A stretch of 64,000 bases of DNA. Source: an uncultured Alphaproteobacteria bacterium. Lineage in GTDB: Bacteria; Pseudomonadota; Alphaproteobacteria; Geminicoccales; Geminicoccaceae. This document shows, piece by piece, positions 9,942 to 29,230 of this stretch. The DNA is taken from positions 59,686 to 123,685 of the forward strand of contig CAWCSG010000023.1 in the NCBI GenBank assembly GCA_963798145.1, in the 5' to 3' direction. The position numbers were made by a program, and so were the translations under genes. Each line of letters begins with the position of its first letter. Positions within the stretch are counted from its first letter, which is position 1. The notes under the pieces were generated by a model. The model was not told the DNA's origin and searched no databases. It saw nothing but the letters and a program-made list of their open reading frames with translations.

Positions 9942-11013
9942 GATCGAGCCGCGGCGCACCATCTCCTGGCAGATGCTCTATCTGACGCCGCCGCTGGCCG
10001 TGCTGCTCACGGTGCTGTCCGGCTTCTTCCTGTTCCTGCTGATGGGCTACCCGCCGTTCAAGGCGCTGACGAGCTTCTTCATCTCGCCGCTGACCACGTT
10101 CTACGGTCTCTCCGAGCTGTGCGTGAAGGCGGCACCGCTGATCATGATCGCGGTCGGCCTCGCCATCGGCTTTCGCGCCAACGTGTGGAACATCGGTGCC
10201 GAGGGCCAGCTCACCATGGGTGCGCTCGCCGGTGGAGCGGTCGGGCTTGCAACCTGGGGCCAGGCCGGCGGCTGGATCCTGCCGACCATGCTGGTCGCGG
10301 GCTTCCTGGGCGGCCTCGCCTACGCGGCGATTCCGGCCTTCCTCAAGGCCCGCTTCGACGTCAGCGAGATCCTGACCAGCCTGATGCTGACTTATGTCGC
10401 GACACTGTTCCTCAGTATCATGGTCTACGGCCCGCTCAAGGACCCAGAAGGCTACGGCTTCCCGCAGTCGCGCATGTTCACCGAGGCCGCGATCGTGCCG
10501 ATCATCCTCGAGGGCACTCGCCTGCATCTGGGTGCGCTGCTGGCGATCGCTGTCGCGGTCGGTGCCTGGGTGCTGATGGCCCGTGCCATCATCGGGTTCG
10601 AGATCAAGGTCGTGGGCCAGGCGCCCGCCGCCGCCCGCTTCGCCGGCTTCTCGCGCACCAAGATCATTTGGCTCTGCCTCCTGCTCAGCGGCGGCCTCGC
10701 CGGCCTCGCCGGCACGATCGAGGTCTCCGGCCCGATCGGCCAGATCATCCCCGTGCTGACCCCGGGCTACGGCTTCACCGCGATCATCGTGGCGTTCCTC
10801 GGCCGATTGCACCCGCTGGGCATCATTCCGGCCGGCCTGCTGGTCGCGCTGTCCTATATCGGCGGCGACAATGCCCAGGTCGAGGTCGGCGTGCCGCCCG
10901 GTGCCACCGGCCTGTTCCAGGGTCTGCTGCTGTTCTTCCTGCTCGCCTCGGACTTCCTCGTCCGCTACCGGATCAGCTACGTGCCGTCGCGCCGGGAGGT
11001 CGCTGTCGCATGA
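9931..11013 (+). CDS. Nucleoside/purine ABC transporter permease I
   Basis: WNIGAEGQ and GYGFTAIIVAFLGRLHP motifs; hydrophobic. Confidence 0.9.
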   Translation: MSLKIEPRRTISWQMLYLTPPLAVLLTVLSGFFLFLLMGYPPFKALTSFFISPLTTFYGLSELCVKAAPLIMIAVGLAIGFRANVWNIGAEGQLTMGALAGGAVGLATWGQAGGWILPTMLVAGFLGGLAYAAIPAFLKARFDVSEILTSLMLTYVATLFLSIMVYGPLKDPEGYGFPQSRMFTEAAIVPIILEGTRLHLGALLAIAVAVGAWVLMARAIIGFEIKVVGQAPAAARFAGFSRTKIIWLCLLLSGGLAGLAGTIEVSGPIGQIIPVLTPGYGFTAIIVAFLGRLHPLGIIPAGLLVALSYIGGDNAQVEVGVPPGATGLFQGLLLFFLLASDFLVRYRISYVPSRREVAVA

Positions 11014-11939
11014 GCCTGGATGTCGCCGTCCCGGTCCTGCTCACCATCATCAGCGCCGCAACGCCTCTGCTCCTGGCCGGCATCGGCGAGCTCGTCGTCG
11101 AGCGCTCGGGCGTGCTCAATCTCGGTGTCGAGGGCATGATGCTGGCGGGCGCCGTCACCGCCTTCGCGGTCACCTTCAGCACCGGCAGCTACACGGCCGG
11201 CATCGCCGCCGCTGCCGTGGCCGGCATGCTGCTGGCGCTGATCTTCGGCGTGCTCACCCTCACGCTGGTGAGCAACCAGGTCGCCACCGGCCTGGCTTTG
11301 ACCCTGTTCGGCATCGGCCTTAGCGCCATCGTCGGCGCCGGCTTCGTCGGCTCGCCGATCCAGCCGCTGCCCAAGCTCGCGATCCCCGGCCTCGCGACCC
11401 TGCCGGTGCTCGGGCCGGTGCTGTTCCAGCAGGACGCCCTGGTCTACCTGTCGGTGGCGCTCACCCTCGGCGTCGCCTGGTTCCTCAAGCGCACGCGCGG
11501 CGGCATGATCCTGCGCGCCTGCGGCGGCTCCGACGTCTCGGCGCACTCGATCGGCTACGACGTGATCCGCATCCGCTACTACGCCGTGCTGTTTGGTGGG
11601 GCCTGCGCCGGCCTGGGCGGGGCGTTCCTATCGCTCGCCTACACGCCGATGTGGGCCGAGAACATGACCGCCGGCCGTGGCTGGATCGCGCTGGCGCTGG
11701 TCGTGTTCTCCTCCTGGCGGCCGATGCGCCTCCTGGCCGGCGCCTATCTGTTCGGCGGCGTGTCCATCCTCCAGCTCTACGTCCAGGGCATGGGCGGGAT
11801 CGGCGTGCCGGCGCAGGTGATGTCGATGCTGCCCTACCTCGCCACCATTCTGGTGCTCACCATCATCTCGGCCGGCTCGGTGCGTGGCCGGCTCGATGCG
11901 CCGGCGTGTCTCGGCAAACCGTTCCGCCCCGCGACCTGA
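11010..11939 (+). CDS. Nucleoside/purine ABC transporter permease II
   Basis: ERSGVLNLGVEG, AGRGWIALA, MLPYLAT; ATG at 11010 (the tail of the 606-aa track ORF). Confidence 0.9.
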   Translation: MSLDVAVPVLLTIISAATPLLLAGIGELVVERSGVLNLGVEGMMLAGAVTAFAVTFSTGSYTAGIAAAAVAGMLLALIFGVLTLTLVSNQVATGLALTLFGIGLSAIVGAGFVGSPIQPLPKLAIPGLATLPVLGPVLFQQDALVYLSVALTLGVAWFLKRTRGGMILRACGGSDVSAHSIGYDVIRIRYYAVLFGGACAGLGGAFLSLAYTPMWAENMTAGRGWIALALVVFSSWRPMRLLAGAYLFGGVSILQLYVQGMGGIGVPAQVMSMLPYLATILVLTIISAGSVRGRLDAPACLGKPFRPAT

Positions 11940-11975
11940 ATTCCTACGTTCCGCAAGAAAAGGGAGAACAAGACG

Positions 11976-13058
11976 ATGACTTTGCACCTCAGACGCCGGG
12001 GCTTCGTGCTCGCCGGTGCGGCCACCGGCATCGGCCTCGCCGCCGGCGTCCGGCCGGCCTTCGCCGACGATCCGCTCAAGGTCGGCTTCGTGTTCCTGGG
12101 CCCGACCGGCGACAATGGCTGGACCTACCGGCACGACGTGGCGCGCAAGGAGGTCGAGGCGGCTTTCCCCGGCAAGGTCACCACGACCTATGTCGAGAAC
12201 GTGCCCGAAGGCCCAGACGCCGAGCGCGTCATCCGCCAGCTCGCTTCCTCCGGCCACGGGCTGATCTTCACCACCTCGTTCGGCTTCATGAACCCGACGC
12301 TGAAGGTCGCGAAGCAGTTCCCGAACGTGAAGTTCGAGCACGCCACCGGCTACCAGGTCCTGCCCAACGTCGCGGTCTACAATGCCCGCTTCTACGAGGG
12401 CCGTGCGGTGATCGGCACCATGGCCGGCATGATGAGCAAGTCCGGCACCATCGGCTATATCGGCTCGTTCCCGATCCCCGAGGTGGTGATGGGCATCAAC
12501 GCCTTCACGCTGGCGGCGCAGAAGGTCAATCCGGCGATCAAGACCGTCGTGGTCTGGGTCAATTCCTGGCACGATCCCGGCAAGGAGGCCGATGCCGCGA
12601 AGACCCTGATCGATCAGGGTGCGGACATCATCTCGCAGCACACCGACAGTGCCGCACCCCTGCAGGTGGCCGAGCAGCGCGGCGTGCATGGCTTTGGCCA
12701 GGCCGCGGACCAGAGCGCCTTCGCGCCCAAGGGGCAGCTCACCGCGATCATCGACAATTGGGGTCCTTACTGCATCGCGCGCACCCAGGCCGTGCTCGAC
12801 GGGTCGTGGCAGTCGCAGAACGTCTGGCTGGGCATGAAGGACGGCATGGTCACGCTGGCACCTTACGGACCCGAGGTGCCGCCGGAGGTCGCCGCCGCGG
12901 CGGACACGGTGAAGGCCGAGATCATCGCCGGCACGCGGCATCCTTTCACCGGGCCGATCATGGACCAGTCGGGCACGGAAAAGGTCGGCACGGGCCTGAC
13001 CATTCCGGATGCCGACCTCGCCAAGATGGATTGGTACGTGAAGGGCGTGCAGGCCTGA
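11976..13058 (+). CDS. BMP-family ABC substrate-binding protein (purine/nucleoside), Tat signal peptide
   Basis: RRGFV twin-arginine leader, GPTGDNGWT, TTSFGF, FEHATGY, SQHTDS. Confidence 0.92.
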   Translation: MTLHLRRRGFVLAGAATGIGLAAGVRPAFADDPLKVGFVFLGPTGDNGWTYRHDVARKEVEAAFPGKVTTTYVENVPEGPDAERVIRQLASSGHGLIFTTSFGFMNPTLKVAKQFPNVKFEHATGYQVLPNVAVYNARFYEGRAVIGTMAGMMSKSGTIGYIGSFPIPEVVMGINAFTLAAQKVNPAIKTVVVWVNSWHDPGKEADAAKTLIDQGADIISQHTDSAAPLQVAEQRGVHGFGQAADQSAFAPKGQLTAIIDNWGPYCIARTQAVLDGSWQSQNVWLGMKDGMVTLAPYGPEVPPEVAAAADTVKAEIIAGTRHPFTGPIMDQSGTEKVGTGLTIPDADLAKMDWYVKGVQA

Positions 13059-14940: not shown

Positions 14941-15594
14941 TCAGAACTCGGCGTCCAGCTCTTCCAGATCGTCCGGCTCGTCCAGGGCGGCGGCCATCCA
15001 CTCCGCCATCGGTGGCCAGGCCATGATCGTGGCGCAATACGCCGCGCAGACCGGGTCGAGCTTGACGCCGTAGGTCAGGAACCGGGTGCAGACCGGTGCA
15101 TACATCGCATCGGCCATCGACGGCTTGGCGCCGAACAGGAAGGGGCCGCCATAGGCCTCGAGGCACTCGTTCCAGATCGCCGCCACCCGCGCGATGTCCG
15201 GCCGGGCGCCGGCGAAGATGTGGAACTCGGCGTGGCGCGCCTTCAGGTTCATCGGCAGCGCCGCGCGCAGGTTGGAAAAGCCGGAATGGATCTCGCCGCT
15301 GATCGAGCGGCAGTGCGCCCGCGCCACGCGTTCGGCCGGGAGCAGACCGGCTTTCGGCTTGAGCTCGGCCAGGTATTCGCCGATCGCCAGCGTGTCCCAG
15401 ACCCTGGCACCCTGGTGCTCGAGGCAGGGCACCAGGAAGGACGGCGACAGCAGCAGCAGCTCCGCACGGGCGGCCGCGTCGATCGGCAGCACCACCTCGC
15501 TGAACGGGAGTCCGGCGATCCGGCACAGGAGCCAGCCGCGCAGTGACCATGCGGAATAGTTCCGGCTGGAAATGGTCAGGGTCGCGTTCGCCAT
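14941..15594 (-). CDS. Glutathione S-transferase family protein
   Basis: SRNYSAWSLRGWL, SPSFLVPCL, VWDTLAIGEYL, SMADAMYAPV. Confidence 0.9.
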   Translation of the reverse strand: MANATLTISSRNYSAWSLRGWLLCRIAGLPFSEVVLPIDAAARAELLLLSPSFLVPCLEHQGARVWDTLAIGEYLAELKPKAGLLPAERVARAHCRSISGEIHSGFSNLRAALPMNLKARHAEFHIFAGARPDIARVAAIWNECLEAYGGPFLFGAKPSMADAMYAPVCTRFLTYGVKLDPVCAAYCATIMAWPPMAEWMAAALDEPDDLEELDAEF

Positions 15595-15703
15595 GGTCTT
15601 GTTCCCCTCAAACAGCCGTGCTGCACGACAGCAAGCATGTCGCATTGCGGGAGAGATTGCGCTAGCCCTTTACCGGACGACTGTTCCGGACCGATGGCGG
15701 GCC

Positions 15704-16918
15704 ATGCTCTATATCGCATATCACTGCTACACCGACCTGATGGACCCCCTGCGCTCGGCGGCGCGCGGCGCGCAGGCCGCCTACGCGCCGACCCGCGAGA
15801 TGTGGGATGCCAAGTTCGGCCGGCGGGTCAGCGCGGCCTGGGAGCTGATCGCGCGCGCCGGGCTCAGCCACGAACGGCCGTCCTACGGCATCGACCATGT
15901 GATGGTCGGCAATCAGGAGGTCGCCGTCCACGAGGAGGCGGTGCTCGCCACCCCGTTCGGCACGCTGCTGCACTTTCGCAAGGACGTCGACACACCGCAG
16001 CCGCGGATGCTGCTGGTGGCGCCGCTTTCGGGTCATTTCGCCACGCTGCTGCGCAACACGGTCAGCACGCTGCTGACCGACCACGACGTCTACGTCACCG
16101 ACTGGCACAATCTGCGCGACGTGCCGCTGGCCGCCGGTCCGTTCGGCTTCGACCACTATATCGAGCACGTGATCCAGTTCCTGGAGACCCTGGGCCCGGG
16201 CGTCCACGTCATGGCGGTGTGCCAGCCTTGCGTGCAGGTGCTGGCGGCGATCGCGACCATGGCCGTCGACGGCAACCCGGCGCAGCCGCTCAGCATGACC
16301 CTGATGGCCGGGCCGATCGACACCCGGATCAACCCGACCAGGGTCAACGAGCTGGCCACCAGCAAGCCGATCGAATGGTTCCGCAAGAATCTGATCGCGA
16401 CCGTGCCGATGCGCTACAAGGGCGCCGGCCGCAAGGTCTATCCGGGCTTCGTGCAGCTGCTGGCGTTCACGTCGATGAATCTGGAACGTCACAAGAAGGC
16501 GCATCGCGACCTGCACGAGCATCTGGTCAAGGGTGAGGTCGAGCAGGCCGACGCGATCCGCAAGTTCTACGACGAATACCTGGCGGTGCTCGATCTCTCG
16601 GCCGATTTCTACCTCGAGACGGTCCAGTACGTGTTCCAGGATGCGCTGCTGGCCAAGGCCGAACTCGATTTTCGCGGCCGGCGCGTCGACCTCGCGGCGA
16701 TCCGGCGCACCGCGCTGCTCACTGTCGAGGGTGAGCGCGACGACATCTGCTCGCTCGGCCAGACCATCGTCGCGCATGACCTCTGCACCGGTCTGCGCCC
16801 GTACATGAAGCGGCACCATATGCAGGCCGGGGTCGGGCACTACGGCGTGTTCAGCGGCCGCCGCTGGGAGACGCAGATCTACCCGATCGTGCGCAACTTC
16901 GTGCTATCGGCCGAGTGA
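15704..16918 (+). CDS. phaZ: Intracellular polyhydroxyalkanoate depolymerase
   Basis: VAPLSGHFATLLR, AVCQP (catalytic Cys), PIDTR, EGERDDI, GVGHYGVF. Confidence 0.93.
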   Translation: MLYIAYHCYTDLMDPLRSAARGAQAAYAPTREMWDAKFGRRVSAAWELIARAGLSHERPSYGIDHVMVGNQEVAVHEEAVLATPFGTLLHFRKDVDTPQPRMLLVAPLSGHFATLLRNTVSTLLTDHDVYVTDWHNLRDVPLAAGPFGFDHYIEHVIQFLETLGPGVHVMAVCQPCVQVLAAIATMAVDGNPAQPLSMTLMAGPIDTRINPTRVNELATSKPIEWFRKNLIATVPMRYKGAGRKVYPGFVQLLAFTSMNLERHKKAHRDLHEHLVKGEVEQADAIRKFYDEYLAVLDLSADFYLETVQYVFQDALLAKAELDFRGRRVDLAAIRRTALLTVEGERDDICSLGQTIVAHDLCTGLRPYMKRHHMQAGVGHYGVFSGRRWETQIYPIVRNFVLSAE

Positions 16919-17334: not shown

Positions 17335-18243
17335 TCAGGCCGCAACAGCCTTGCCGACCTCCTCGACCATGAAATCCGCGAACGCCTTGACCTTGGCCGG
17401 CAGCAGCTTGCGGTGCGGGTAGACCACCGCGAGCGTGACCGGCTCGGGTGGGAAGTCGGGCAGCACGGCGACCAGCCGCCCGGCGCGCAGATGCGGGGCC
17501 ACCTCGAACACCGGCTTGAGGGCGATGCCCTGACCCAGCAATGCCCATTCGGTGAGCATGTCGCCATCGTCGGCGTCGAGCCGGCCGCCGACCGCGAACG
17601 GCTCGGGACCGTCGGGCGTGCGCAGGGTCCAGCGATATTGCAGCGAGCCTGGGAAGCGCAGCAGCAGGCATTGGTGGTCGAGCAGGTCCTCCGGCCGGGT
17701 GGGGGACCCGTGAGCCGCGAGGTAGTCCGGTGCGGCGCACAGGATGCGCGGGCAGTCCGCGATCTTGCGGGCGATCAGGCTGGAATCGGTGAGCACGGCG
17801 AGCCGGATTGCGACGTCGACGGCCTCGCGGACGAGATCGAGCAGATGGTCCGAAAGGCGCAGCCGCACGGCCAGCTGCGGGTGGCTTGCCTGGAACCGCG
17901 GCAGGAGCGGGGCCAGGATCCGGCGGGCGAAACCCAAGGGTGCGGTGACGCGCAAGTTGCCGTGCGGTGTGCCGCCGGCATCGGCGGCGACGCTCTCCGC
18001 GTGCGCGACCGCCGCCAGCACCTCCTGCGCCGCCTCGTAGAACGCCGCACCCTGCTCGGTCGGCTGGACCTGGCGGGTGGTGCGGTTGAGCAGCCGGACG
18101 CCGAGATGGCCCTCGAGCTGCTGCAGCCGGTGGCTGACCACCGCCGGCGACAGCCGCAAGTGCCTCCCCGCGGCCGACAGGCTGCCGAGCTCGACCACCC
18201 GAACGAACACCTGCATGTTCTCGACCAGCATCCCCATCGTCAC
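17335..18243 (-). CDS. LysR family transcriptional regulator, divergent from puuD-guaD
   Basis: N-terminal HTH (GSLSAAGRHLRLSPAVVSHRLQQLE...LLNRTTR), substrate-binding domain. Confidence 0.95.
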   Translation of the reverse strand: MTMGMLVENMQVFVRVVELGSLSAAGRHLRLSPAVVSHRLQQLEGHLGVRLLNRTTRQVQPTEQGAAFYEAAQEVLAAVAHAESVAADAGGTPHGNLRVTAPLGFARRILAPLLPRFQASHPQLAVRLRLSDHLLDLVREAVDVAIRLAVLTDSSLIARKIADCPRILCAAPDYLAAHGSPTRPEDLLDHQCLLLRFPGSLQYRWTLRTPDGPEPFAVGGRLDADDGDMLTEWALLGQGIALKPVFEVAPHLRAGRLVAVLPDFPPEPVTLAVVYPHRKLLPAKVKAFADFMVEEVGKAVAA

Positions 18244-18376
18244 CCCCCTTTCGGCCCATTGTTTGCTTCTGTTTGAAGATCCTGGGCGGCGGCTCCCGGT
18301 TCACCACTGCCGAGTAGCAGGCTAGCACAGACCGCGGGCATCGCCGCATCTCGCCGGCAGCACGGAAGGAAGCGCC

Positions 18377-19579
18377 ATGGAGCCGATCTTGTGGGAATGG
18401 CTGAACATGGCCGTTCGCTGGCTGCACGTCATCGCCGGCATCGCCTGGATCGGCAGCTCGTTCTACTTCGTCCACCTCGACCTCAGCCTGAAGCAGCGGC
18501 CGGGCCTGCCCGAGGGCGCGGGCGGCGAGGCCTGGCAGGTGCATGGCGGCGGCTTCTACAACATGGTCAAGTATCTGGTGGCGCCGGCGCGCATGCCCGA
18601 AGACCTGACCTGGTTCAAGTGGGAGGCCTACGCGACGTGGCTGTCCGGCATGGGCCTGCTGATCATCGTCTACTATTTCGGCGCGCAGCTTTACCTGATC
18701 GATGCCAGCGTGCTCGACCTGCCGGTCTGGGGGGCGGTGCTGATCAGCGTGGCCGGCCTGGCCCTGGGCTGGGTGGTCTACGACCAGCTCTGCAAGTCCA
18801 AGCTCGGCGACAACGACACGGTGCTGTTCGCGGCCTTGTTCGTATTCCTGGTCGTGCTGGCCTTCGCCTACACCTTCGTGTTCAGCGGCCGCGGCGCCTT
18901 CATGCAGATGGGCGCCCTGGTCGGCACCATCATGGTGGCCAACGTCGCCATGGTGATCATTCCCAAGCAGCGCATCGTGGTGGCCGACCTGATCGCCGGC
19001 CGGCAGCCGGACCCGAAGCTCGGAGCAGTCGCCAAGCAGCGCTCGCTGCACAACAACTATTTGACCCTGCCGGTGATCTTCGTGATGATCGCCAATCATT
19101 ATCCGCTGGCCTTCGCCACCCGCTGGAACTGGCTGATCTTCGGCATCGTACTGGTGATCGGCGCCGTGATCCGTCACTTCTACAATGAGCGCCACAAGGG
19201 TCGGCCGTCGCCGTGGTGGGCCTGGGGCGTGGCCGTGGCCTGCATGGGCGGGATCGTTCTGCTCAGCATGGCAGGGCCCGCCCGGGTCGAGGAAGGCGCC
19301 GCGCCGCCGGCCGAGCCCGTCACCTTCGCCCAGGCCGAGGAAGTGGTGCTCGGGCGCTGCAGCATGTGCCACACGGCGGAGCCGATGTGGGAGGGGGTCA
19401 CGGTAGCACCCAAGGGGGTGATGCTCGACACGCCGGAGCGCATCCTGCTGCACGCGCACGAGATCGCGCTGCAGGCGGTACACACCCACGCGATGCCACC
19501 CGGCAACATCACCGAGATCACCCCGGAGGAGCGCCAGGTCCTCGCCGGGTGGATCGCCGACGGCGCCAAGGCGGAATAG
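18377..19579 (+). CDS. puuD: Membrane-bound urate oxidase with C-terminal cytochrome c
   Basis: RWLHVIAGIAWIGSSFYF, WQVHGGGFY, WFKWEAY, RSLHNNYLTLP; heme motif CSMCH. Confidence 0.93.
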   Translation: MEPILWEWLNMAVRWLHVIAGIAWIGSSFYFVHLDLSLKQRPGLPEGAGGEAWQVHGGGFYNMVKYLVAPARMPEDLTWFKWEAYATWLSGMGLLIIVYYFGAQLYLIDASVLDLPVWGAVLISVAGLALGWVVYDQLCKSKLGDNDTVLFAALFVFLVVLAFAYTFVFSGRGAFMQMGALVGTIMVANVAMVIIPKQRIVVADLIAGRQPDPKLGAVAKQRSLHNNYLTLPVIFVMIANHYPLAFATRWNWLIFGIVLVIGAVIRHFYNERHKGRPSPWWAWGVAVACMGGIVLLSMAGPARVEEGAAPPAEPVTFAQAEEVVLGRCSMCHTAEPMWEGVTVAPKGVMLDTPERILLHAHEIALQAVHTHAMPPGNITEITPEERQVLAGWIADGAKAE

Positions 19580-19581
19580 TC

Positions 19582-20892
19582 ATGACCACACACAGGGCGG
19601 TGCGCGGCCGCCTGTTGACCTTCCTGGACGATCCCGCCGAGGTGGGCGGCACCGCGAGCCATCGCTACACCCATGACGGTTTGGTCGTCATCGAGGACGG
19701 GCTGGTCAGCGCCGTGGGCGACGCGAGTGCGCTGCTGCCCACTCTGCCGGCGGACACGCCGGTCGATCACTACCCGGATCATCTCGTCTTGCCCGGACTG
19801 ATCGACACGCACATCCACTACCCGCAGACGCAGGTGATCGGCTCCTACGGCGCGCAGCTCCTGGAATGGCTGCAGAAATACACCTTTGTCGAGGAACAGA
19901 AATTCAGTGATCCGGCGCATGCCGAGCGGGTCGCGACATTCTTTCTCGATGAGCTGCTGCGTAACGGCACCACGACTGCGGTGGTCTACTGCACCGTACG
20001 GCCGGAATCGGTCGACGCTTTCTTCGCCGAGAGCCAACGGCGCAACACGCGAATGATCGCCGGCAAGGTGATGATGGACCGGGGTGCGCCCGAGGGCCTC
20101 CTGGACACGCCAGAGACCGGCTATCGCGACAGCAAGGCGCTGCTCGCCCGATGGCATGGGCAGGGCCGGCAGCTCTACGCGATCACGCCACGCTTCGCGC
20201 TCACCTCGAGCGAGGGGCAGCTCCAGGCCGCGGGCGCCTTGGTGCGCGAGCATCCCGAAGCCTACATGCAGACCCATCTGGCCGAGAATCTCGACGAGAT
20301 CGCGACCGCCCGGCGGCTTTATCCGCAGGCCGCCAGCTACACCGACATCTACGACCGCTATGGCCTGCTGGGACCGAAATCGCTGTTCGGCCATTGCATC
20401 CATCTCGACGAGACGGAGCTGCAGCGGCTGTCTGCGACCGGCTCGATCGCCGTCTTCTGCCCGACCTCGAACCTGTTCATCGGCAGCGGCCTGTTCGATC
20501 TGGCGACGCTGCGCGACCCCGCCCGACCGGTCCATGTCGGCCTCGCCACCGACGTGGGCGGTGGGACCAGCTATTCGATGCTGCGCACTGCGGCGGAGGC
20601 CTACAAGGTGCTGCAGCTGCGGCGTCAAAATTTGCCGGCACTCGACGCGTTCTACCGCATGACGCTGGGCAACGCGCGTTGCCTCGGCCTCGCCGACAAG
20701 ATCGGCGCCCTGGAGCCCGGGCGCGAGGCTGACCTCGTCGTGCTCGACGCCAGCGCGACGCCGGCGACGGCGCACCGGATGGAAACCGTCGAGGGTGACC
20801 TCGCGGAGGAGCTCTTCGTGCTCATGACCATGGGCGACGATCGGGCCGTACGGGCGACCTATGTCGCCGGCGAGCGGTTGCACGCCGCGTAA
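19582..20892 (+). CDS. guaD: Guanine deaminase
   Basis: PGLIDTHIHYPQ, ITPRFA, QTHLAEN, CPTSNLFIGSG, ATDVGGGTS. Confidence 0.95.
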   Translation: MTTHRAVRGRLLTFLDDPAEVGGTASHRYTHDGLVVIEDGLVSAVGDASALLPTLPADTPVDHYPDHLVLPGLIDTHIHYPQTQVIGSYGAQLLEWLQKYTFVEEQKFSDPAHAERVATFFLDELLRNGTTTAVVYCTVRPESVDAFFAESQRRNTRMIAGKVMMDRGAPEGLLDTPETGYRDSKALLARWHGQGRQLYAITPRFALTSSEGQLQAAGALVREHPEAYMQTHLAENLDEIATARRLYPQAASYTDIYDRYGLLGPKSLFGHCIHLDETELQRLSATGSIAVFCPTSNLFIGSGLFDLATLRDPARPVHVGLATDVGGGTSYSMLRTAAEAYKVLQLRRQNLPALDAFYRMTLGNARCLGLADKIGALEPGREADLVVLDASATPATAHRMETVEGDLAEELFVLMTMGDDRAVRATYVAGERLHAA

Positions 20893-20895
20893 GAA

Positions 20896-23800
20896 TCAGG
20901 CCGCCGTCGCCAGGAGCTGGACCACTTCTTCCGCGGGGCCGGGGCGGCCGAGCAGGTAGCCTTGCGCCGCGTCGCAGCCCCGCTCGCGCAGGAATGCGAG
21001 TTGTTCGGCGGTCTCGACTCCCTCGGCCGTGACCCGCTTGCCGAGGCTGTGTGCCAGAACCACGACGGCAGTCGCGATCGCGCCACCGCCCGGGTTGTCG
21101 CCGATGTCGGCCACGAACGAGCCGTCGATCTTCACCTCATCGAACGGGAAGTGTTTGAGGTAGGCGAGGGAGCTGTAGCCGATGCCAAAATCGTCGATCG
21201 CCAGGGTCACGCCATAGCTCGCGAGGCGCCGCAAGGTCTCGTGGATCTGCTCCTTCGACGAATCGAGAAACACGCTTTCGGTCAGCTCGAGCTCGAGAAG
21301 GCTCGCGTCCAGGCCCGCCGCGTCGAGGGCATCGCGGACCGATTCTACAAACTCGGCCCGACGTAGCTGCGTGGCGGAGACGTTGACCGCGATCTTGAGC
21401 GGCCGGCCAGCGTCGCGCCAGACTACCGCTTGCCGGCAGGCGGCCTGCAACACCCAATCCCCGATCGGATGAATGAGCCCGGACGCCTCGGCGATCGGGA
21501 TGAAGGACGCGGGTGGGATCTGCCCGCCGCCAGGATGGTTCCAACGCAGAAGCGCCTCAACCTTCGCCAAACCCTGACCTGGAAGCTCGAACACCGGTTG
21601 ATAGGCGAGTTCCAGACCGCCGTCGGCGAGCGCCTGACGCAGTCCGCGTTGAAGGTTTCTGACCTTGGAGAGCTCTCGATCCATCTCGCGCCCGTAATGC
21701 TCAAATCGGCTGCGCCCAGCTGCCTTGGCCCGATAGAGCGCAACGTCGGCATTGCGCATCAGGCGTTCGGAAGTGTCGCCATGATCGGGGAAGGTGGTGA
21801 TCCCGAGGCTGGCGCTCACCTCGATCTCCTGTTCGTCGATCACGAATGGTGCTTCCAGCACTGCGAGCACGCGGCGCGCCATCTGTTCGGGCGCATCAAG
21901 CTCGGTCACACCCTCCTGGACCAGCGCGAACTCGTCGCCGCCCAATCGGGCCCAGGTATCGCTGGAGCGAGTGAGGCCGCGTAGACGAGCGGCGACCTCG
22001 CGCAGCAGCGCATCGCCCGCGGTATGGCCAAGGCTGTCATTGACCTCCTTGAATTGGTCGAGGTCGAGCAGCATTATCGCCATGCGTCCGCCGTTGCGGC
22101 GTGTCCGGGCAAGTGCGTGCCCGAGGCGGTCCTGGAACAGCACCCGGTTCGGGAGGCTGGTGAGGGGATCGTGTAGCGCTGCGTGACGGAAGCGTTCCTC
22201 GGCGACCTTCCGTTCGGTGATATCGACCGCGGCGCCTACCGCGCCGACAACCGCACCTGTAGCATCGCGAACCGGCGTTGCGCTGGCGAGTTCGTCGAAA
22301 TAGGTGCCGTCGTCGAACACAATACGCAATTCCTCATTGCGCACGATCTCGCCGCGTGCGGCGCGCTGAACCGGCAAATGCTCGAATGGCACTTCTCGAT
22401 TGTCCTTGTAGACGCGAAAGTGCTGCGGGCGTTCTTTGTTGGGAGCACTCAAGGATTGATTGTGGGCGGTGGCCACGCGCAAGATGTCAGAAGCGTGGCG
22501 ATTCCCGGTGATTCGCTGGCACTCGGTATCATGCGCCAGCCAGACTGCGATCGGAACGGTTTCCATCACGGTTTCCAGTTCCGCTGTCCGGGCTTGGAGC
22601 ACGCTGACGGCCCGTTTGCGGGCGGTGACATCTCGGAATACCACCTGAATGACGAGTTCGCCGTCGATCATCACCGACGCAGCTGCGGCCTCGACGGCGA
22701 AAGGGGTTCCGTCCAGCCGGCGATAGGTCAGCTCGGCGAGTTCTGCCCGGGCCCCAGGGACGGACAATGTAGCGGTTCGGGCACGTGCCAGCGGCAGGCT
22801 CGTCTCATCTACCAGCGTGAAGATTTCCCGGCCGACCAGGTCCGGCGCATCGCGAGCGCCCAGCAGGGCAGCGGCCTGCATGTTGGCGAGCAGGATGGTC
22901 CCCTGACGATGGACGAAGACGGCGTCGGGTGAGGTGTCGACCAGCGCCCGATAGCGCTCTTCGCTTTCGCGTAGCGCCTCGACGGCGCGCTTGCGGTCCG
23001 AGATATCGGCGAGGGTACCGATGCCGCGCGTCGGTCGACCCGCCTCGTCGAAATACACGCGCCCGGTCGCCGCGACCCAACGCTCCGCGCCGTCATTGGC
23101 TCGGCGAATACGAAAGTCGGCAACGTATGTGCCGCCGCTCGCCGGGTCGAAGGCCTGTCGGAAGCGGTCGTCGACCCATTGGCGGTCGTCGGGGTGGATC
23201 AATGAATTGAGCACTTCGTAGGTCGGTTCGATCTCTGCAGCCAGGCCGAGGATGGCCTTTTGCTCGCCGGACCATCGGCGGGTCCCAGACGCTGCGTCGA
23301 TGTCCCAAATGCCCAGCGACGTGGCCTCGACGGCCAAGCGCAGACTGTCAGTTGTGGCCTGCAGGCGGACCTCGCTGGCCCGAGCCGCCTCCTCCGCTCG
23401 CCGCCTTTCGACGATCTCCGCATTCAGGCGGCCGTTCGCGTCCGCCAGTTCCGCGGTACGCGCCGCCACGCGCAACTCCAGCTCGTCGCGTGCCAGTGCT
23501 AGAGCACCTTCCGCCGCTGCCCGGCGAGCCACCTCGGCGCCTAGAGCGTCGTTCTGAACCTGCAGCGCTGCGGGACTCGGCAAGGCCAAAAGCCGCGGTA
23601 GCAATGGCCAGAGCGCCACGGCCGTCGCGACCGAGATGGCGGCGGTGCCGGCCTTGAGAACGCCCTGGAGGCCGTAGGCCGGCACCCAGAGCGTGGCGAG
23701 GTCCGCCACGTGGGTGATGCCACAGGCCAAAATGAACGCGGCGAACAGGCCGGCGAGCCAAGGATAATGCAGATCGCCCCGGCGGCGCAAAAACACCAAG

Positions 23801-23946
23801 ATCGCGCAGGGGATCGAAAAGTAGGCGGCTGCGGTCAGGGCATCGGCGCCGGCGTGCAGGGCAACCAGATCGGGGCGCCACAACAGGCAATAGCCATGCG
23901 GCACGAAGGATGCGGCACCGAAAAGATACTCGAGCAAGTCCGGCAT
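20896..23946 (-). CDS. Ethylene-binding-domain (ETR1-like) sensor with 3 PAS, GGDEF and EAL domains
   Basis: N-terminal ADALTAAAYFSIP...FAAFILACGITH...LKAG; PAS segments; RSSD-x5-GGDEF; EALLRW, ELTE, DDFGIGYSSL, KID, EGVE, QGY. Start at MPDLLEYLF. Confidence 0.88.
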   Translation of the reverse strand: MPDLLEYLFGAASFVPHGYCLLWRPDLVALHAGADALTAAAYFSIPCAILVFLRRRGDLHYPWLAGLFAAFILACGITHVADLATLWVPAYGLQGVLKAGTAAISVATAVALWPLLPRLLALPSPAALQVQNDALGAEVARRAAAEGALALARDELELRVAARTAELADANGRLNAEIVERRRAEEAARASEVRLQATTDSLRLAVEATSLGIWDIDAASGTRRWSGEQKAILGLAAEIEPTYEVLNSLIHPDDRQWVDDRFRQAFDPASGGTYVADFRIRRANDGAERWVAATGRVYFDEAGRPTRGIGTLADISDRKRAVEALRESEERYRALVDTSPDAVFVHRQGTILLANMQAAALLGARDAPDLVGREIFTLVDETSLPLARARTATLSVPGARAELAELTYRRLDGTPFAVEAAAASVMIDGELVIQVVFRDVTARKRAVSVLQARTAELETVMETVPIAVWLAHDTECQRITGNRHASDILRVATAHNQSLSAPNKERPQHFRVYKDNREVPFEHLPVQRAARGEIVRNEELRIVFDDGTYFDELASATPVRDATGAVVGAVGAAVDITERKVAEERFRHAALHDPLTSLPNRVLFQDRLGHALARTRRNGGRMAIMLLDLDQFKEVNDSLGHTAGDALLREVAARLRGLTRSSDTWARLGGDEFALVQEGVTELDAPEQMARRVLAVLEAPFVIDEQEIEVSASLGITTFPDHGDTSERLMRNADVALYRAKAAGRSRFEHYGREMDRELSKVRNLQRGLRQALADGGLELAYQPVFELPGQGLAKVEALLRWNHPGGGQIPPASFIPIAEASGLIHPIGDWVLQAACRQAVVWRDAGRPLKIAVNVSATQLRRAEFVESVRDALDAAGLDASLLELELTESVFLDSSKEQIHETLRRLASYGVTLAIDDFGIGYSSLAYLKHFPFDEVKIDGSFVADIGDNPGGGAIATAVVVLAHSLGKRVTAEGVETAEQLAFLRERGCDAAQGYLLGRPGPAEEVVQLLATAA

Positions 23947-24112
23947 TGGCCTTGGCTCTCCATCTTGCGCGGGCGTAACCTGACAACCAGTGGGTGATGA
24001 AGGGCTATCAGCATTCCTCGTTTGCGACAAGATGGCGCTGGCGCGCAGACAACAACTGAGGAGACCGAGCCCGCGTTTGGCGAGCGGTCGGCAAGGCTGA
24101 GGTTCGGCCCAA

Positions 24113-24148
24113 CCGCGCCGGGCAGGCTCGAAAGCTCGTCCGGCGCGG
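24113..24148. terminator. GC-rich hairpin downstream of tctC and upstream of the GGDEF/EAL gene
   Basis: CCGCGCCGG...CCGGCGCGG arms around an imperfect inner stem with a CGAA loop. Confidence 0.45.
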
Positions 24149-24170
24149 CATGGTGGCCCCAGGGTGACGG

Positions 24171-25148
24171 CTAGTCGATCTGAGCGCCGGATGCCGCGAC
24201 GATCGGCGCCCATTTCGCGAGCTCGTTCCGGACGTGCGTCGCGAGCTCGGCCGGCGACGAGCCGACAACGGTGGCTCCAAAGCCCTGCAGCTTGGCCTGT
24301 GCCTCTGGGTCGGCGACCGCCGCGACGGCGGCGGCATTGAGGCGCTCGATTACCGCCGGCGGGGTCCCGGCGGGTGCGAACAACGCATTCCAGGTGGAGG
24401 TCTCGTAGCCGGGCAGTCCCGATTCCGCGATCGTCGGCAAGTCCGGCATGGACGCCGAGCGCTCGACGGTGGTCACCGCCAGACCGCGCAGCTGGCCATC
24501 CTTGATATAGCCGGTCGACGAGGGGAGGTTATCGAACATGATCGAGACATGATTGCCCAACAGATCGATCAGCGCCGGACCGGCTCCCTTGTAGGGGATG
24601 TGCACCATGTCGACGCCGGCCATGGCTTTGAACAACTCGCCGGAGAGATGCGGCGGCGTGCCGTTGCCGGACGAGGCGTAGCTATATTTGTCGGGATTTG
24701 CTTTCAGGAGGGCGATCAACTCCGCGACGTTCTGCGCCGGCAGCTCGGGATTGACCACGAGCACGTTCGGCACGGTGACCAGCAAGGAGATCGGCGCGAA
24801 GTCGGCGACCGCGTCGTAGGGCATCTTCTTGTAGAGTGCCGGATTGAGTGCGTGGGTCGCGACCGTGCCCATCAGGATCGTGTAGCCGTCCGGATCCTCC
24901 TTGGCGACGCTGGCCGAGCCCAGATTGCCGCCGGCGCCGTCCTTGTTCTCGACGATCACCTGCTGGCCGAGCTCCTTGGTCATCCTCTCGGCGATGACGC
25001 GCGCGATCAGATCGGTCGAGCCGCCGGCCGGGAAGGGCACTACCAGGGTCACCGGGCGGGTGGGGAAAGCCTCCTGCGCCGCAGCTGCGCTCGCCATTGC
25101 CACGAATCCGAGCAGGGCGAGGCAAAGGAAAGAACGCTTCGGCAGCAT
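24171..25148 (-). CDS. Tripartite tricarboxylate transporter substrate-binding protein (Bug/TctC), no tctAB adjacent
   Basis: FPTRPVTLVVPFPAGGSTD, ENKDGAGG, ASSGNGT, HIPYKGAGP, PDLPTIAESG. Confidence 0.93.
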   Translation of the reverse strand: MLPKRSFLCLALLGFVAMASAAAAQEAFPTRPVTLVVPFPAGGSTDLIARVIAERMTKELGQQVIVENKDGAGGNLGSASVAKEDPDGYTILMGTVATHALNPALYKKMPYDAVADFAPISLLVTVPNVLVVNPELPAQNVAELIALLKANPDKYSYASSGNGTPPHLSGELFKAMAGVDMVHIPYKGAGPALIDLLGNHVSIMFDNLPSSTGYIKDGQLRGLAVTTVERSASMPDLPTIAESGLPGYETSTWNALFAPAGTPPAVIERLNAAAVAAVADPEAQAKLQGFGATVVGSSPAELATHVRNELAKWAPIVAASGAQID

Positions 25149-25262
25149 GGGCGGCTCCTGGTCGCTGTCGTGTGCTGGTTGCGGGGTCCGGCCCGGTGGT
25201 GGCAGGAGTAGTCCGGCGGCGCGCCTCGCGCTACCGCCTAGCCAAGCGACGAGGAGAAGCCG

Positions 25263-25736
25263 GTGACCGCCGACGAAGCTCTGCTGGCCACCCTGCTCGA
25301 GCAGGAAGAGCGGCTGCAGCTCACCACCTTCAACAACGATACGGCGTACACGCTGGGGATGGCGCTGGTCGAGCGCGCCCGCGCCGGACACATGGCCCTG
25401 ACGGTCGACCTGACGCTGGTCCACCAGCAATTGTTCCATGTCGCCCTGCCGGGCACCACGATCGACAACGACCACTGGATCCGCCGCAAGAACGCCGCCG
25501 TCTACCGCTTCGGTCGCAGCTCGTTCTATTTGGGCGTATCATGCCGGGTGCGCGGGCTGAGCCTAGCCGAGCGTTACCTGGTCGACGGCAACGAGTTCGC
25601 GGCCCACGGCGGGGCGTTCCCGATCCGCGTCCGCGGCGTCGGCCTGGTGGGCACGATGACGGTCTCCGGGCTGCCGCAGGAGGAGGATCATCGGCTGGTG
25701 GTGACGGTGCTCGAGCAGTATCTGGCCGGGCGCTAA
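25263..25736 (+). CDS. UPF0303 / GlcG-HbpS-like heme-binding domain protein
   Basis: NDHWIRRKNAAVYRFGRSS and HGGAFPI...SGLPQEEDH motifs; GTG start after GGAG. Confidence 0.8.
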   Translation: MTADEALLATLLEQEERLQLTTFNNDTAYTLGMALVERARAGHMALTVDLTLVHQQLFHVALPGTTIDNDHWIRRKNAAVYRFGRSSFYLGVSCRVRGLSLAERYLVDGNEFAAHGGAFPIRVRGVGLVGTMTVSGLPQEEDHRLVVTVLEQYLAGR

Positions 25737-25741
25737 TCGGC

Positions 25742-26587
25742 ATGGCGCGCGCGGCCCGCAAGACGATGCCGGCGACCACGCTGGAAAGCAGGGCCGGCCA
25801 GGTACAATCCCTCACGCGCGCCCTGTCGCTGCTGCGCGCGCTGGCCGAGAGCGGCGACGGCATGACGCTGTCCGACGTGGCGCAGCTGGTCGGGCTGCCG
25901 CCGTCGACCGCGCACCGCTTGCTGACCACGCTGCAGCAGGAGCGGTTCGTGCGTTTCGACGTGGCGTCGCACGTCTGGCAGGTCGGCGTCGAGGCATTCG
26001 TGATCGGCAATGGGTTCGTGCGCACGCGCGACGTCGTGGTGATGGCGCGGCCCTATCTGCGCCGGCTGATGGAGGAGGGTGGAGAGACCGCCAATCTCTA
26101 TCTGGAGCAGGACGGCGAGGTGATCTGCATGGCCCAGGTCGAGTGCCGGCAGATGATGCGCGCGATCGCGCGGCCGGGCGGGCGCGTGCAGATGCACTGC
26201 TCGGGTGCTGGCAAGGCGATCCTGGGCTGGCTGCCTGACGGCGAGCTGACCCGGATCATCCAGAAGCACGGGCTGCGTCGGGTCACCGACCGCACGCTCG
26301 ACACGCCGCGCAAGCTGCGCGCGGCGCTGGAGCAGGTGCGCGCGTGCGGCTACGCGGTCGACGACGAGGAGCATGCGGTGGGCCTGCGCTGCGTCGCCGC
26401 CCCGGTGTTCGACGAGCATGGCCTGCCGGTCGCCGCGCTCTCACTGTCCGGACCGGGTGCGCGGGTCACCGAGGAGCGTCTGGCGGCGTTGGGGGAGCTG
26501 ACGGCGCAGGTTGCCGGTGAGCTGTCGGCAGAGCTCGGTGGCCATTCGGCGGTAGCCAACTTCCATTCCCGAAACATCGGCAACTAA
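25742..26587 (+). CDS. IclR family regulator (AllR-like, probably glyoxylate-responsive)
   Basis: [43 protein letters not shown]; directly upstream of gcl. Confidence 0.92.
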
Positions 26588-26613
26588 TTGAAACTTACGG
26601 AGGTTCGGCAAGC

Positions 26614-26630
26614 GTTCCACGATACGGAAT
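26614..26630. promoter_or_regulatory. Candidate IclR operator upstream of gcl
   Basis: GTTCC-N7-GGAAT inverted repeat, a geometry reported for IclR-type sites such as GenR. Confidence 0.5.
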
Positions 26631-26712
26631 GGTTTCCAAAACCGTTTGCCGACTTGTTTGTAGCCCGATAACCTGCGAACGTGACCAGTTAGGAACCGGG
26701 GAGGCCAGGGAC

Positions 26713-28525
<1,813 letters not shown>

Positions 28526-28528
28526 CCG

Positions 28529-29230
28529 TCAGCGCGTGATGCGCAGCTCCAGCGCGGCCCGCGTGAGCTGCTCGAGATGGTCGATCAGGTTGTCGGCGCT
28601 GAGGGCGGCAGCATCGGCGTCGCCAGCGACGATCGCCGCGAGGGTGTCGGCGTGGATGTCGGAATTCTCCGGGAAGCCGCCCGCGTCCTCGCGGAACGCA
28701 TACCAAAACCGTCGCGAGAGGCCGTGGATCACGCCGATGCTGCTGGCGAGGACGGAATTGTGCGCGGCACGTGGCACGATGTCGTGAATCGAGCGGGTCG
28801 CATGCAGGTAGCGAACAGCGTCGGTCGCGGCGGCGGCCGCGCGGATCTCATTGGCGAGCAACTGCATCGCGGCGCGTTCGCGGTCGAGGGCGCGGACGGC
28901 CGCCAGCTGCACGACGAGCCGCTCGAGCGGCCGCCGAACCTCGAGCAGCTCGAGTTGCTTGACGACGTCGATGGGCGCCACGAGCACGCCACGACGCGCG
29001 TGGATCTCGACGAAGCCTTCGAATTTGAGGCGCTGCAGCGCCTCGCGGATCGGCGTCCGGCCACAGTTGAGCTGCTCGCTGAGCTGGTTCTCGGAAATCA
29101 TCGAACCCGGCCGTAACTGGCGCGTGACGATCATCTCCTCGATGGCGCGATAGGCGGCCTCGGACAGCGATTCACCCGGTGCCGCCGCCGGCCGGCCGTT
29201 CAGTTCCAGCACCAGATTCGCCCCATCCAT
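28529..29230 (-). CDS. GntR/FCD family regulator
   Basis: [27 protein letters not shown] wHTH plus FCD domain. Confidence 0.9.

Follow-up and report, generated by a model that had tools for sequence, protein, structure and literature searches.

A gene combining an ETR1-like ethylene-binding domain with GGDEF and EAL domains in an uncultured soil alphaproteobacterium

A gene that combines an ethylene-binding domain (EBD), a signalling helix, three PAS domains, a GGDEF domain, and an EAL domain was recognized in a 64,000-nucleotide stretch of DNA from an uncultured alphaproteobacterium (hereafter, the window). The gene occupies 20896..23946 on the minus strand and encodes 1016 aa followed by a stop codon. 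This combination of domains is genuine and occurs repeatedly. The protein sequence is best read as a gas or copper sensor that sets c-di-GMP directly. This reading is supported because the ETR1 residues are kept, the N-terminus shows 49% identity to AzoEtr1 from Azospirillum brasilense Sp7, both catalytic domains appear competent, and in Novosphingobium the two ends of such a pathway are linked in two genes. It is rather probable that the protein is a one-component sensor, in which ethylene on Cu(I) would shift the balance between synthesis and hydrolysis of c-di-GMP.

Gene structure and domain composition

The sensor gene is intact, with the ATG at 23946 and the stop codon at 20896-20898, as seen in the open reading frame and its translation on the minus strand. 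An in-frame 5' extension of the open reading frame reaches 24213 and overlaps the end of the upstream TctC gene, whose stop is at 24171. At least 10 orthologue clusters are exactly 1016 aa long, with query coverage of 99-100%, and thus the start at 23946 is supported. A look-up of the exact protein sequence gave no entry in public assemblies; the nearest relative, with 91% identity, is encoded on a frameshifted contig. A preliminary description of this DNA had proposed the order of a three-transmembrane (TM) EBD, a coiled coil, three PAS domains, GGDEF with an RxxD motif, and EAL, and this order was borne out by Pfam, motifs, and AlphaFold2.

The EBD core (aa 27-122; 23581..23868, minus strand) was delimited with Pfam, the alignment to AzoEtr1, and AlphaFold2. 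The Pfam scan matched ETR1_N (PF25487), whose curated cut-off is 27 bits, at aa 27-122 with 120 bits and the e-value 5e-35, covering model positions 2-97 of 97. The match is far beyond chance. Two motifs can be read directly from the sequence: D35-ALTAAA-Y42-F-S-I45-P46 and F68-AA-F71-I72-LA-C75-G-I-T-H79. The residues D35, Y42, I45, P46, I72, C75, H79, and K98 correspond to D25, Y32, I35, P36, I62, C65, H69, and K91 of ETR1. All of the seven ethylene-binding residues of ETR1 and the helix-3 Lys, which had been claimed for this N-terminus, were thus found in the alignments to ETR1 and AzoEtr1. The correspondence of D35, C75, H79, and K98 of AzoEtr1 to D25, C65, H69, and K91 of AtETR1 was reported (PMC11819568).

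The EBD shows 35% identity to ETR1 1-141. The alignment to ETR1 had been described as gapless; this holds from D35 (ETR1 D25) to H79 (ETR1 H69), but a 3-residue gap lies ahead of K98 (ETR1 K91). The alignment to AzoEtr1 is an independent check. It contains no gap over residues 5-146 (142 residues), and the two proteins share their numbering.

The structure of residues 1-201 was predicted with AlphaFold2 from an alignment of 77 sequences, with a mean pLDDT of 92.8. TM helices are predicted at 25-55, 62-85, and 91-121 with pLDDT above 90, and the Arg-rich loop R54-R56 between TM1 and TM2 agrees with the positive-inside rule. The model thus predicts three N-terminal TM helices and a cytoplasmic C-terminus, as in ETR1-like EBDs. 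Sequence and fold searches returned no solved EBD structure, and every Foldseek match had an e-value above 0.9. The EBD looks functional.

Just upstream of the EBD core, and outside the Pfam ETR1_N model, conservation revealed the extracytoplasmic motif P16-H-G-Y-C20-L-L-W-R-P25 (23872..23901, minus strand). Among the 145 nearest EBD proteins, C20 is invariant, and P16, H17, G18, W23, and P25 are retained in at least 90%. The motif is also present in AzoEtr1 and Acaryochloris, is absent from plant ETR1, and is missing along with C75/H79 in two degenerate lineages. Its role lies outside the current plant-based model of the binding site. Ahead of helix 1, P-H-G-x-C may contribute to Cu acquisition, supply an extra ligand, or form a dimer disulfide.

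A cytoplasmic signalling helix or coiled coil (aa 125-200; 23347..23574, minus strand) joins TM3 to PAS1. AlphaFold2 predicts these 76 residues as one unbroken helix with pLDDT of about 98. Three PAS domains follow, all on the minus strand: PAS1 (aa ~206-320; 22987..23331; Pfam PAS_3 at 224-311, e-value 1.2e-19), PAS2 (aa ~326-445; 22612..22971; Pfam PAS/PAS_9 at 330-442), and PAS3 (aa ~455-582; 22201..22584; partial Pfam PAS_4 match at 524-580). The PAS3 segment shows 64-72% identity among the 12 closest orthologue clusters. PAS1 is similar to the first PAS of FixL (PDB 8js5). In the alignment to this structure, the "rhd" stretch of FixL, which presumably holds the heme His, is an insertion in FixL with no counterpart in PAS2. 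A FixL-type heme-PAS oxygen sensor was rejected for this reason.

The GGDEF domain (aa 590-747; 21706..22179, minus strand; Pfam GGDEF, e-value 1.7e-47) and the EAL domain (aa 768-1002; 20941..21645, minus strand; Pfam EAL, e-value 1.3e-72) were also aligned to the structures 5m3c and 4rnh. The I-site R660-S-S-D663 is located five residues ahead of G669-G-D-E-F673. The metal- and GTP-binding residues of the GGDEF domain (PF00990) are intact (D628/D630, N636, D645, K741, and R745), and so are the EAL-domain (PF00563) residues E797-A-L-L-R801, N855, E887/E890, D918-D919 (FGIGYSS), K939, E975, and Q995. The GGDEF, I-site, and EAL motif residues are conserved in 32 family members, and the residue reading and this conservation together confirm the presence of the RxxD I-site and all EAL catalytic motifs indicated in the preliminary description. 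Both catalytic domains appear competent. Among solved structures, the nearest relatives are the tandem GGDEF-EAL modules of 5m3c (e-value 1e-113), deposited as "Diguanylate cyclase", and 4rnh (e-value 6e-112), deposited as "Motility regulator", which we take to be Pseudomonas MorA. Many tandem GGDEF-EAL proteins, such as those of the PdeA/RbdA type, act chiefly as phosphodiesterases despite intact GGDEF motifs, which counts against the ethylene-switch reading.

Distribution, conservation, and genomic neighbourhood

EBD architectures were collected by an exhaustive search of representatives with local and Pfam domain typing; a search with the EBD only gave fragments of at most 243 aa. Database domain annotations include at least 33 clusters at 90% identity that combine PF25487, PF00990, and PF00563. 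They originate from Geminicoccaceae-type soil metagenome-assembled genomes, the cultured species Humitalea rosea (P0330), and one Methylotetracoccus genome. The combination is a minority among EBD proteins, which form about 8,000 clusters in all: it was found in 8 of the 144 nearest EBD clusters, while the remainder are chiefly histidine kinases, with a kinase present in about 80% of the 144. The window comes from an uncultured soil bacterium without a demonstrated link to plants, a point counted against the ethylene-switch reading.

Among the 12 closest orthologue clusters, the identity is 66% for the EBD, 70% for GGDEF, and 71% for EAL; conservation of the EBD is thus roughly on a par with that of the catalytic domains. 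Evolution has preserved the EBD-GGDEF-EAL fusion. The window protein and 27 of the 32 relatives compared retain the complete set of ethylene-binding residues, and one more member lacks the N-terminal part of the EBD. In the P0270/P0271/P0273 clade and in P0284, C75/H79 and further EBD residues have disappeared, while the rest of the protein is kept. Since these two lineages retain PAS-GGDEF-EAL, the output module can evidently work without the ligand site, which counts against the ethylene-switch reading. The number of PAS domains is 1, 2, or 3 at the same orthologous locus, and natural variants across the family carry 0 to 3.

In Novosphingobium umbonatum (L008), a gene for EBD-HK-REC overlaps the start of a gene for REC-PAS-GGDEF-EAL. 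The EBD kinase thus appears wired to the GGDEF-EAL protein, and this two-gene arrangement is an independent connection between the same kinds of input and output.

A gene for a TctC-family periplasmic solute-binding protein (24171..25148; Pfam TctC, e-value 4e-82) lies upstream on the same strand, 224 bp from the sensor gene. This adjacency is retained at five loci (L083, L084, L087, L088, and L001), and the TctC neighbour is absent at the EBD loci of Novosphingobium and methanotrophs. Functional coupling to the TctC protein is unsupported, as the adjacency is limited to one lineage in which all neighbouring genes are syntenic. The neighbourhoods checked contain no copper chaperone, copper ATPase, or other copper-handling gene near the sensor gene, a further point against the ethylene-switch reading. 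Single-sequence searches found no other GGDEF, EAL, EBD, or kinase open reading frame in the window. No c-di-GMP riboswitch or other RNA element was found near the gene, and the sole Rfam match in the window is tRNA-Ser. The promoter and terminator scan detected no promoter-like site around the gene, and two terminator-like sites within it versus 2.8 expected from shuffles.

Possible signal conversion and alternative readings

The protein would be an inner-membrane sensor, whose N-terminus faces the periplasm and whose three TM helices constitute an ETR1-type EBD. By homology, the EBD is probably a homodimer that holds Cu(I) via C75 and H79, and D35 and K98 would position the Cu site and connect it with the output domains. 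The ligand that enters the membrane and binds Cu(I) may be ethylene, or a small alkene like it, released in soil or by roots. In the light of the model and the general behaviour of such sensors, the change could travel from TM3 through the 76-residue helix to the three PAS domains, which could supply additional inputs. The relative geometry of GGDEF and EAL would then alter, and the balance between synthesis, product-inhibited via the RxxD I-site, and hydrolysis would move. The expected outcome is an ethylene-dependent change in c-di-GMP that affects biofilm formation, attachment, or motility with no phosphorelay.

The three PAS domains between input and output could dominate the regulation. 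In the extreme case, the EBD would be mainly a membrane anchor or dimerisation module, ethylene would have little or no role, and the PAS domains would sense the real signals, such as redox, a metabolite, or a partner protein. The two lineages with no Cu/ethylene site and an intact PAS-GGDEF-EAL part are consistent with this, as are the similarity of PAS1-PAS2 to the tandem PAS of FixL and the variable PAS number at one orthologous locus, which indicates that the cytoplasmic sensing part is evolving actively. However, the retention of all ethylene-binding residues in the window protein and most of its relatives speaks against an anchor; D35, Y42, I72, and K98 have no obvious structural anchoring role, and the conservation of the EBD equals that of the catalytic domains. 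PAS2 also does not have the heme histidine of FixL, and no cofactor motif was found. Such an anchor is unlikely.

The EBD could instead be a sensor of periplasmic or membrane copper, either of its availability or of its Cu(I)/Cu(II) redox state, with the metal occupancy of C75/H79 as the signal. These two residues are Cu(I) ligands by homology (PMC11819568), the further invariant pair H17 and C20 faces the periplasm and is lost along with the Cu site, and an EBD-GGDEF-EAL homologue is present in the copper-dependent methanotroph Methylotetracoccus. However, the residues corresponding to D25, Y32, I35, P36, and I62, which serve ethylene binding in ETR1 and are not metal ligands, are all conserved, and AzoEtr1, a close homologue, responds to ethylene at ppb concentrations (PMC11819568). 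With no copper homeostasis gene in the neighbourhood either, copper as the signal is improbable. Still more improbable is that the Cu site takes mainly another small pi-acceptor of relevance in soil (other alkenes or alkynes, CO, or isocyanides), with ethylene as a minor agonist or one among several: Cu(I) also binds olefins other than ethylene, propylene, CO, and acetylene elicit weaker responses from plant ethylene receptors, and the host is a free-living soil bacterium, but the pocket residues are identical to those of receptors with nanomolar ethylene affinity, and we know of no alternative ligand for any EBD.

If the ethylene reading is correct, bacteria would be able to link a gas released by plants or soil directly to the second messenger of biofilm formation and motility with no phosphorelay. 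An ethylene-to-c-di-GMP switch would possibly tell the cell how gas diffuses in the soil or how near a root is. A broader proposal, that such a direct switch operates in free-living soil Alphaproteobacteria and that the periplasmic P-H-G-x-C is a functional part of the bacterial ethylene/copper site, is tentative, and the two parts together are somewhat doubtful. For ETR1-type receptors, the step from ethylene binding in the membrane to an output is poorly understood, and a receptor with an enzymatic output (GTP to c-di-GMP to pGpG) would help by giving a simple quantitative read-out of this conversion in vitro and in cells. The variants with different PAS numbers and the relatives with no binding site would be built-in controls. 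A genetically encoded ethylene sensor is a possible tool.

Comparison with known receptors and c-di-GMP enzymes

Among ethylene receptors, AzoEtr1 is the closest point of reference. Its residues 1-130 bind 14C-ethylene saturably, disruption of its gene abolishes binding by cells, and ethylene alters biofilm formation and root colonisation via AzoEtr1 (PMC11819568), a biological precedent for the response proposed here. Both proteins are from Alphaproteobacteria, their N-terminal 146 residues are collinear, and P-H-G-x-C and a PAS domain after the EBD are observed in both; AzoEtr1 also has a biofilm-related phenotype. The output is different: AzoEtr1 signals via a histidine kinase, and a single-domain response regulator lies next to it. 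It had been noted that the bacterial receptors tested are of the kinase type, which agrees with the EBD-PAS-HK architecture of AzoEtr1 and the phosphorelay of SynEtr1 (PMC11819568). The window protein gave no Pfam match to HisKA, HWE_HK, or HATPase_c, and its C-terminus is GGDEF and EAL. It does not have the kinase transmitter of the two-component ethylene receptors ETR1, SynEtr1, and AzoEtr1, and thus the receptor itself would make or degrade a second messenger as its output. A full-text literature search yielded no study of ligand binding or enzyme activity for any EBD-GGDEF/EAL protein, in agreement with the earlier remark that no biochemical characterisation of such fusions was known.

ETR1 and Synechocystis SynEtr1 (Slr1212) share with the window protein the three-TM, Cu(I)-dependent type of EBD with the seven essential residues and the helix-3 Lys. 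ETR1 combines the EBD with GAF, kinase, and receiver domains and signals via CTR1/EIN2 at the ER membrane, while SynEtr1 combines it with a cyanobacteriochrome GAF domain and a kinase. The N-terminus of ETR1 contains two cysteines, while that of the window protein carries PHGxC with a single Cys, as is typical for bacterial EBDs (PMC6682694). The TM2-TM3 loop of the window protein is 3 residues shorter than in ETR1.

On the output side, the C-terminal 430 residues align end to end with the membrane-bound PAS-GGDEF-EAL proteins 5m3c, 4rnh, and 5xgb (PA0861). All catalytic residues are in common, and PAS domains are located upstream of the tandem enzyme module in all of them. The N-terminal membrane or periplasmic sensors of these proteins are of other or unknown types, and none is ETR1-type. 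E. coli DosP and DosC, with a heme PAS or globin, are similar in concept, as a metal centre senses a diatomic or other small gas and sets c-di-GMP turnover directly, and DosP matches the GGDEF-EAL part of the window protein with the e-value 6e-62. The metal centre of the window protein would be Cu(I) within a bundle of TM helices rather than the heme of a soluble PAS or globin domain. The N. umbonatum pair has the same input domain and output enzymes as the window protein. There the pathway is split into a phosphorelay, whereas the window protein joins both ends in one polypeptide.

Domain organization and catalytic residues

The sensor gene is located on the reverse strand, begins with an ATG at 23946, ends with a stop codon at 20896-20898, and encodes a protein of 1016 aa. 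The start at 23946, already chosen in the preliminary description, is supported by at least 10 orthologue clusters of exactly 1016 aa with 99-100% query coverage. Extended in frame to 24213, the gene would run into the 3' end of its upstream neighbour, the TctC gene. The Pfam scan revealed an ETR1-type ethylene-binding domain (EBD; ETR1_N, aa 27-122, E-value 5e-35, 120 bits against a cut-off of 27), PAS_3 (aa 224-311, 1.2e-19), PAS/PAS_9 (aa 330-442, 4e-17/5e-18), a partial PAS_4 as the third PAS (aa 524-580, 1.2e-09), GGDEF (aa 590-747, 1.7e-47), and EAL (aa 768-1002, 1.3e-72), and no histidine-kinase domain. AlphaFold2, run on residues 1-201 with an alignment of 77 sequences, gave a model (mean pLDDT 92.8) in which helices at 25-55, 62-85, and 91-121 are followed by a single unbroken helix at 125-200. 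The Pfam domains and this long helix match the order first read from the sequence: EBD, coiled coil, three PAS domains, GGDEF, and EAL. The loop that follows helix 1 is rich in Arg, from which the N-terminus is assigned to the outside of the cell and the enzymatic domains to the cytoplasm.

In the GGDEF domain, G669GDEF is preceded at a distance of five residues by the I-site R660xxD663, and the residues that bind metal and GTP are present (D628/D630, N636, D645, K741, and R745). The EAL domain contains E797ALLR, N855, E887/E890, D918D919FGIGYSS, K939, E975, and Q995. The RxxD I-site and the full set of EAL catalytic motifs originally claimed were found, and when 32 EBD-GGDEF-EAL proteins were aligned, all of the GGDEF and EAL residues named here proved conserved. 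The best matches among solved structures are the tandem GGDEF-EAL of 5m3c ("Diguanylate cyclase", E-value 1e-113) and 4rnh ("Motility regulator", 6e-112), while DosP is a more remote match. PAS1-PAS2 are similar to the PAS tandem of FixL (8js5, 4e-22). PAS2 has no counterpart of the FixL stretch that presumably holds the heme histidine.

The ethylene-binding domain and its putative ligand

The two core motifs of the EBD are D35-x6-Y42-F-S-I45-P46 and F68-x2-F71-I72-x2-C75-G-x-T-H79, and the third helix carries K98. The seven binding residues of ETR1 and the helix-3 Lys reported earlier are thus present as D35, Y42, I45, P46, I72, C75, H79, and K98. Against ETR1 1-141, the identity is 35%; the alignment is gapless from D35 (ETR1 D25) to H79 (ETR1 H69), with a 3-residue gap ahead of K98 (ETR1 K91). 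The "without gaps" of the preliminary description therefore holds for the core and not for the Lys. No solved structure similar to the EBD was found by sequence or by fold.

The sequence of AzoEtr1, the ethylene receptor of Azospirillum brasilense Sp7, was recovered from plasmid p1 (L081:2989-4566). It has the published length of 525 aa, and its gene is followed by the response regulator gene. The window protein is 49% identical to AzoEtr1 over residues 5-146, with no gaps and identical numbering. By alignment, D35, C75, H79, and K98 of AzoEtr1 correspond to D25, C65, H69, and K91 of AtETR1; AzoEtr1(1-130) binds 14C-ethylene saturably, and disruption of the gene abolishes ethylene binding by the cells (PMC11819568).

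Before helix 1 and outside Pfam ETR1_N, the motif P16-H17-G18-x-C20-L-L-W23-R-P25 was recognized (aa 16-25, window 23872-23901, reverse strand). C20 does not vary across the nearest 145 EBD proteins, and conservation at the remaining motif positions is 90% or more. The motif is also present in AzoEtr1 and a cyanobacterial (Acaryochloris) EBD, and is not known from ETR1. In cyanobacterial receptors, the N-terminus has only one Cys, which may stand in for the two disulfide-forming cysteines of plants (PMC6682694).

Two lineages of the EBD-GGDEF-EAL family have lost C75 and/or H79 along with other EBD residues (HLAIP in place of YFSIP and SGGLAQ in place of ACGITH, for instance): the clade of P0270, P0271, and P0273, mutually 82-86% identical, and separately P0284. 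These metagenome homologues are full-length and retain the PAS-GGDEF-EAL part. H17 is replaced by Q in the clade, and C20 by P in P0284. Both H17 and C20 are kept in 27/27 members with intact C75/H79 whose whole domain could be scored; loss of either thus occurs in 4/4 proteins lacking C75/H79 and 0/27 others, counted without phylogenetic correction. From this coincidence, motif and metal site appear to be parts of one functional unit. As natural variants without the binding site, these four proteins would be useful negative controls.

The window protein is probably a one-component sensor, to judge from its sequence. Ethylene would bind Cu(I) within the membrane domain, the signal would pass through the long helix and then the PAS domains, and the balance of I-site-limited cyclase to phosphodiesterase activity would shift. 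The degenerate lineages indicate that the remainder of the protein can persist without the binding site, which favours the main alternative, the PAS domains as the real sensors and the EBD as an anchor; this is considered unlikely. Sensing of copper or redox state instead of ethylene is improbable, and no copper-handling gene was found near the sensor gene. Another small unsaturated molecule as the ligand is very improbable. For the ethylene sensor, the response could have either sign: ethylene decreases biofilm formation in Azospirillum and increases it in Synechocystis (PMC11819568).

Locus conservation and distribution of the fusion

A TctC-family binding protein gene lies 224 bp upstream of the sensor gene on the same strand. 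Beyond it, genes for an HbpS-like protein, an IclR regulator, and a TPP enzyme (glyoxylate carboligase-like) point away on the opposite strand. Downstream, genes for a guanine-deaminase-type amidohydrolase, a Urate_ox_N protein, and a LysR regulator converge on the sensor gene. The flanking genes (17335-20892 and 25263-28539) resemble purine/glyoxylate catabolism genes, and a PHB depolymerase gene is present at 15572-16918. The TPP enzyme gene (26629-28539, forward strand) is split by a frameshift near 27,990-28,030, with TPP_enzyme_C model positions 2-48 in one frame and 45-150 in ORF 27926-28525. Either the assembly has an indel here or the gene is a pseudogene; its orthologues are whole in L084 (603 aa) and L088 (599 aa).

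The order HbpS-like, TctC, sensor, and amidohydrolase is kept at loci L083 (sensor 91% identical), L084 (66%), and the Geminicoccaceae loci L088 (two PAS) and L001 (one PAS, 57%), and in part at L087. At one and the same locus in L001, L088, L084, L083, and the window (20896-25736), the sensor has about 757, 888, or 1016 aa and contains one, two, or three PAS domains, respectively. These sensors are orthologues of one lineage at one locus with changing PAS number, and PAS domains have been gained or lost in place, since the neighbouring genes remain 67-98% identical. Functional coupling of TctC with the sensor was not accepted, because the adjacency is absent at the examined EBD loci of other lineages. 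The window has a G+C content of 60-70%, its nearest named relatives are Geminicoccaceae, and only soil metagenomes matched even a few of its 31-mers. The host is probably an uncultured soil alphaproteobacterium.

An exhaustive search with the EBD alone revealed 8,255 clusters at 50% identity with E-values below 1e-3, and 1,168 below 1e-30. Among the nearest 144, classical kinases were found in 76, HWE/HisKA_2-type kinases in at least 34 more, and GGDEF in 8 (4 EBD-GGDEF and 4 EBD-(PAS)n-GGDEF-EAL), the remainder being fragments. Output through c-di-GMP is therefore a recurrent minority, about 6% of these clusters. When the whole protein was used as the query, at least 33 clusters (90% identity) carried annotations for PF25487, PF00990, and PF00563 together. 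Full-length relatives of 1013-1031 aa are 63-79% identical end to end; two shorter ones (823 and 888 aa; 86% and 91%) are apparently truncated or frameshifted. Shorter forms differ in PAS number: two at 888-891 aa, one at about 750 aa, and none at 610 aa. The sources that have names are metagenome-assembled Geminicoccaceae, Humitalea rosea (P0330), which is in culture, and a genome of Methylotetracoccus in which a single ORF holds the EBD and GGDEF-EAL module; ethylene is never mentioned in the source names.

Comparison with known ethylene receptors

As originally stated, the characterised bacterial ethylene receptors are of the kinase type (PMC11819568). No publication on an EBD-GGDEF/EAL protein turned up in full-text literature searches, in agreement with the earlier remark that no biochemical characterisation of such fusions was known. 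For Komagataeibacter, stimulation of cellulose production by ethylene has been reported in a study that names no receptor (PMC4686702). EBD genes are also carried on plasmids or chromids in Azospirillum, Rhodovastum, Novosphingobium, and Acaryochloris; plasmid p2 of Novosphingobium sp. ES2-1 (L086), a conjugative plasmid, bears an EBD-kinase and response-regulator pair beside a type II CRISPR-Cas9 locus.

Elsewhere, EBD input and c-di-GMP output are joined by phosphorelay or adjacency. In Novosphingobium umbonatum (L008), the last 4 bases of a hybrid kinase gene (EBD-HK-REC, HisKA-HATPase; 7953-9905) are also the first 4 of a REC-PAS-GGDEF-EAL gene (9902-12094), a two-gene version of the fused window protein. 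Direct adjacency is seen in L077, from a Methylococcaceae genome, where an EBD gene and a GGDEF-EAL gene abut. Finding this input and this output linked across separate genes supports the view that the fusion may be a functional short-cut. Input domain and output enzymes are both familiar separately, and the fusion is not new in kind, because domain annotations in databases already show it. This uncharacterised variant of a known sensor is set apart by its directly enzymatic output, and its main value would be as a tractable read-out for EBD signalling.
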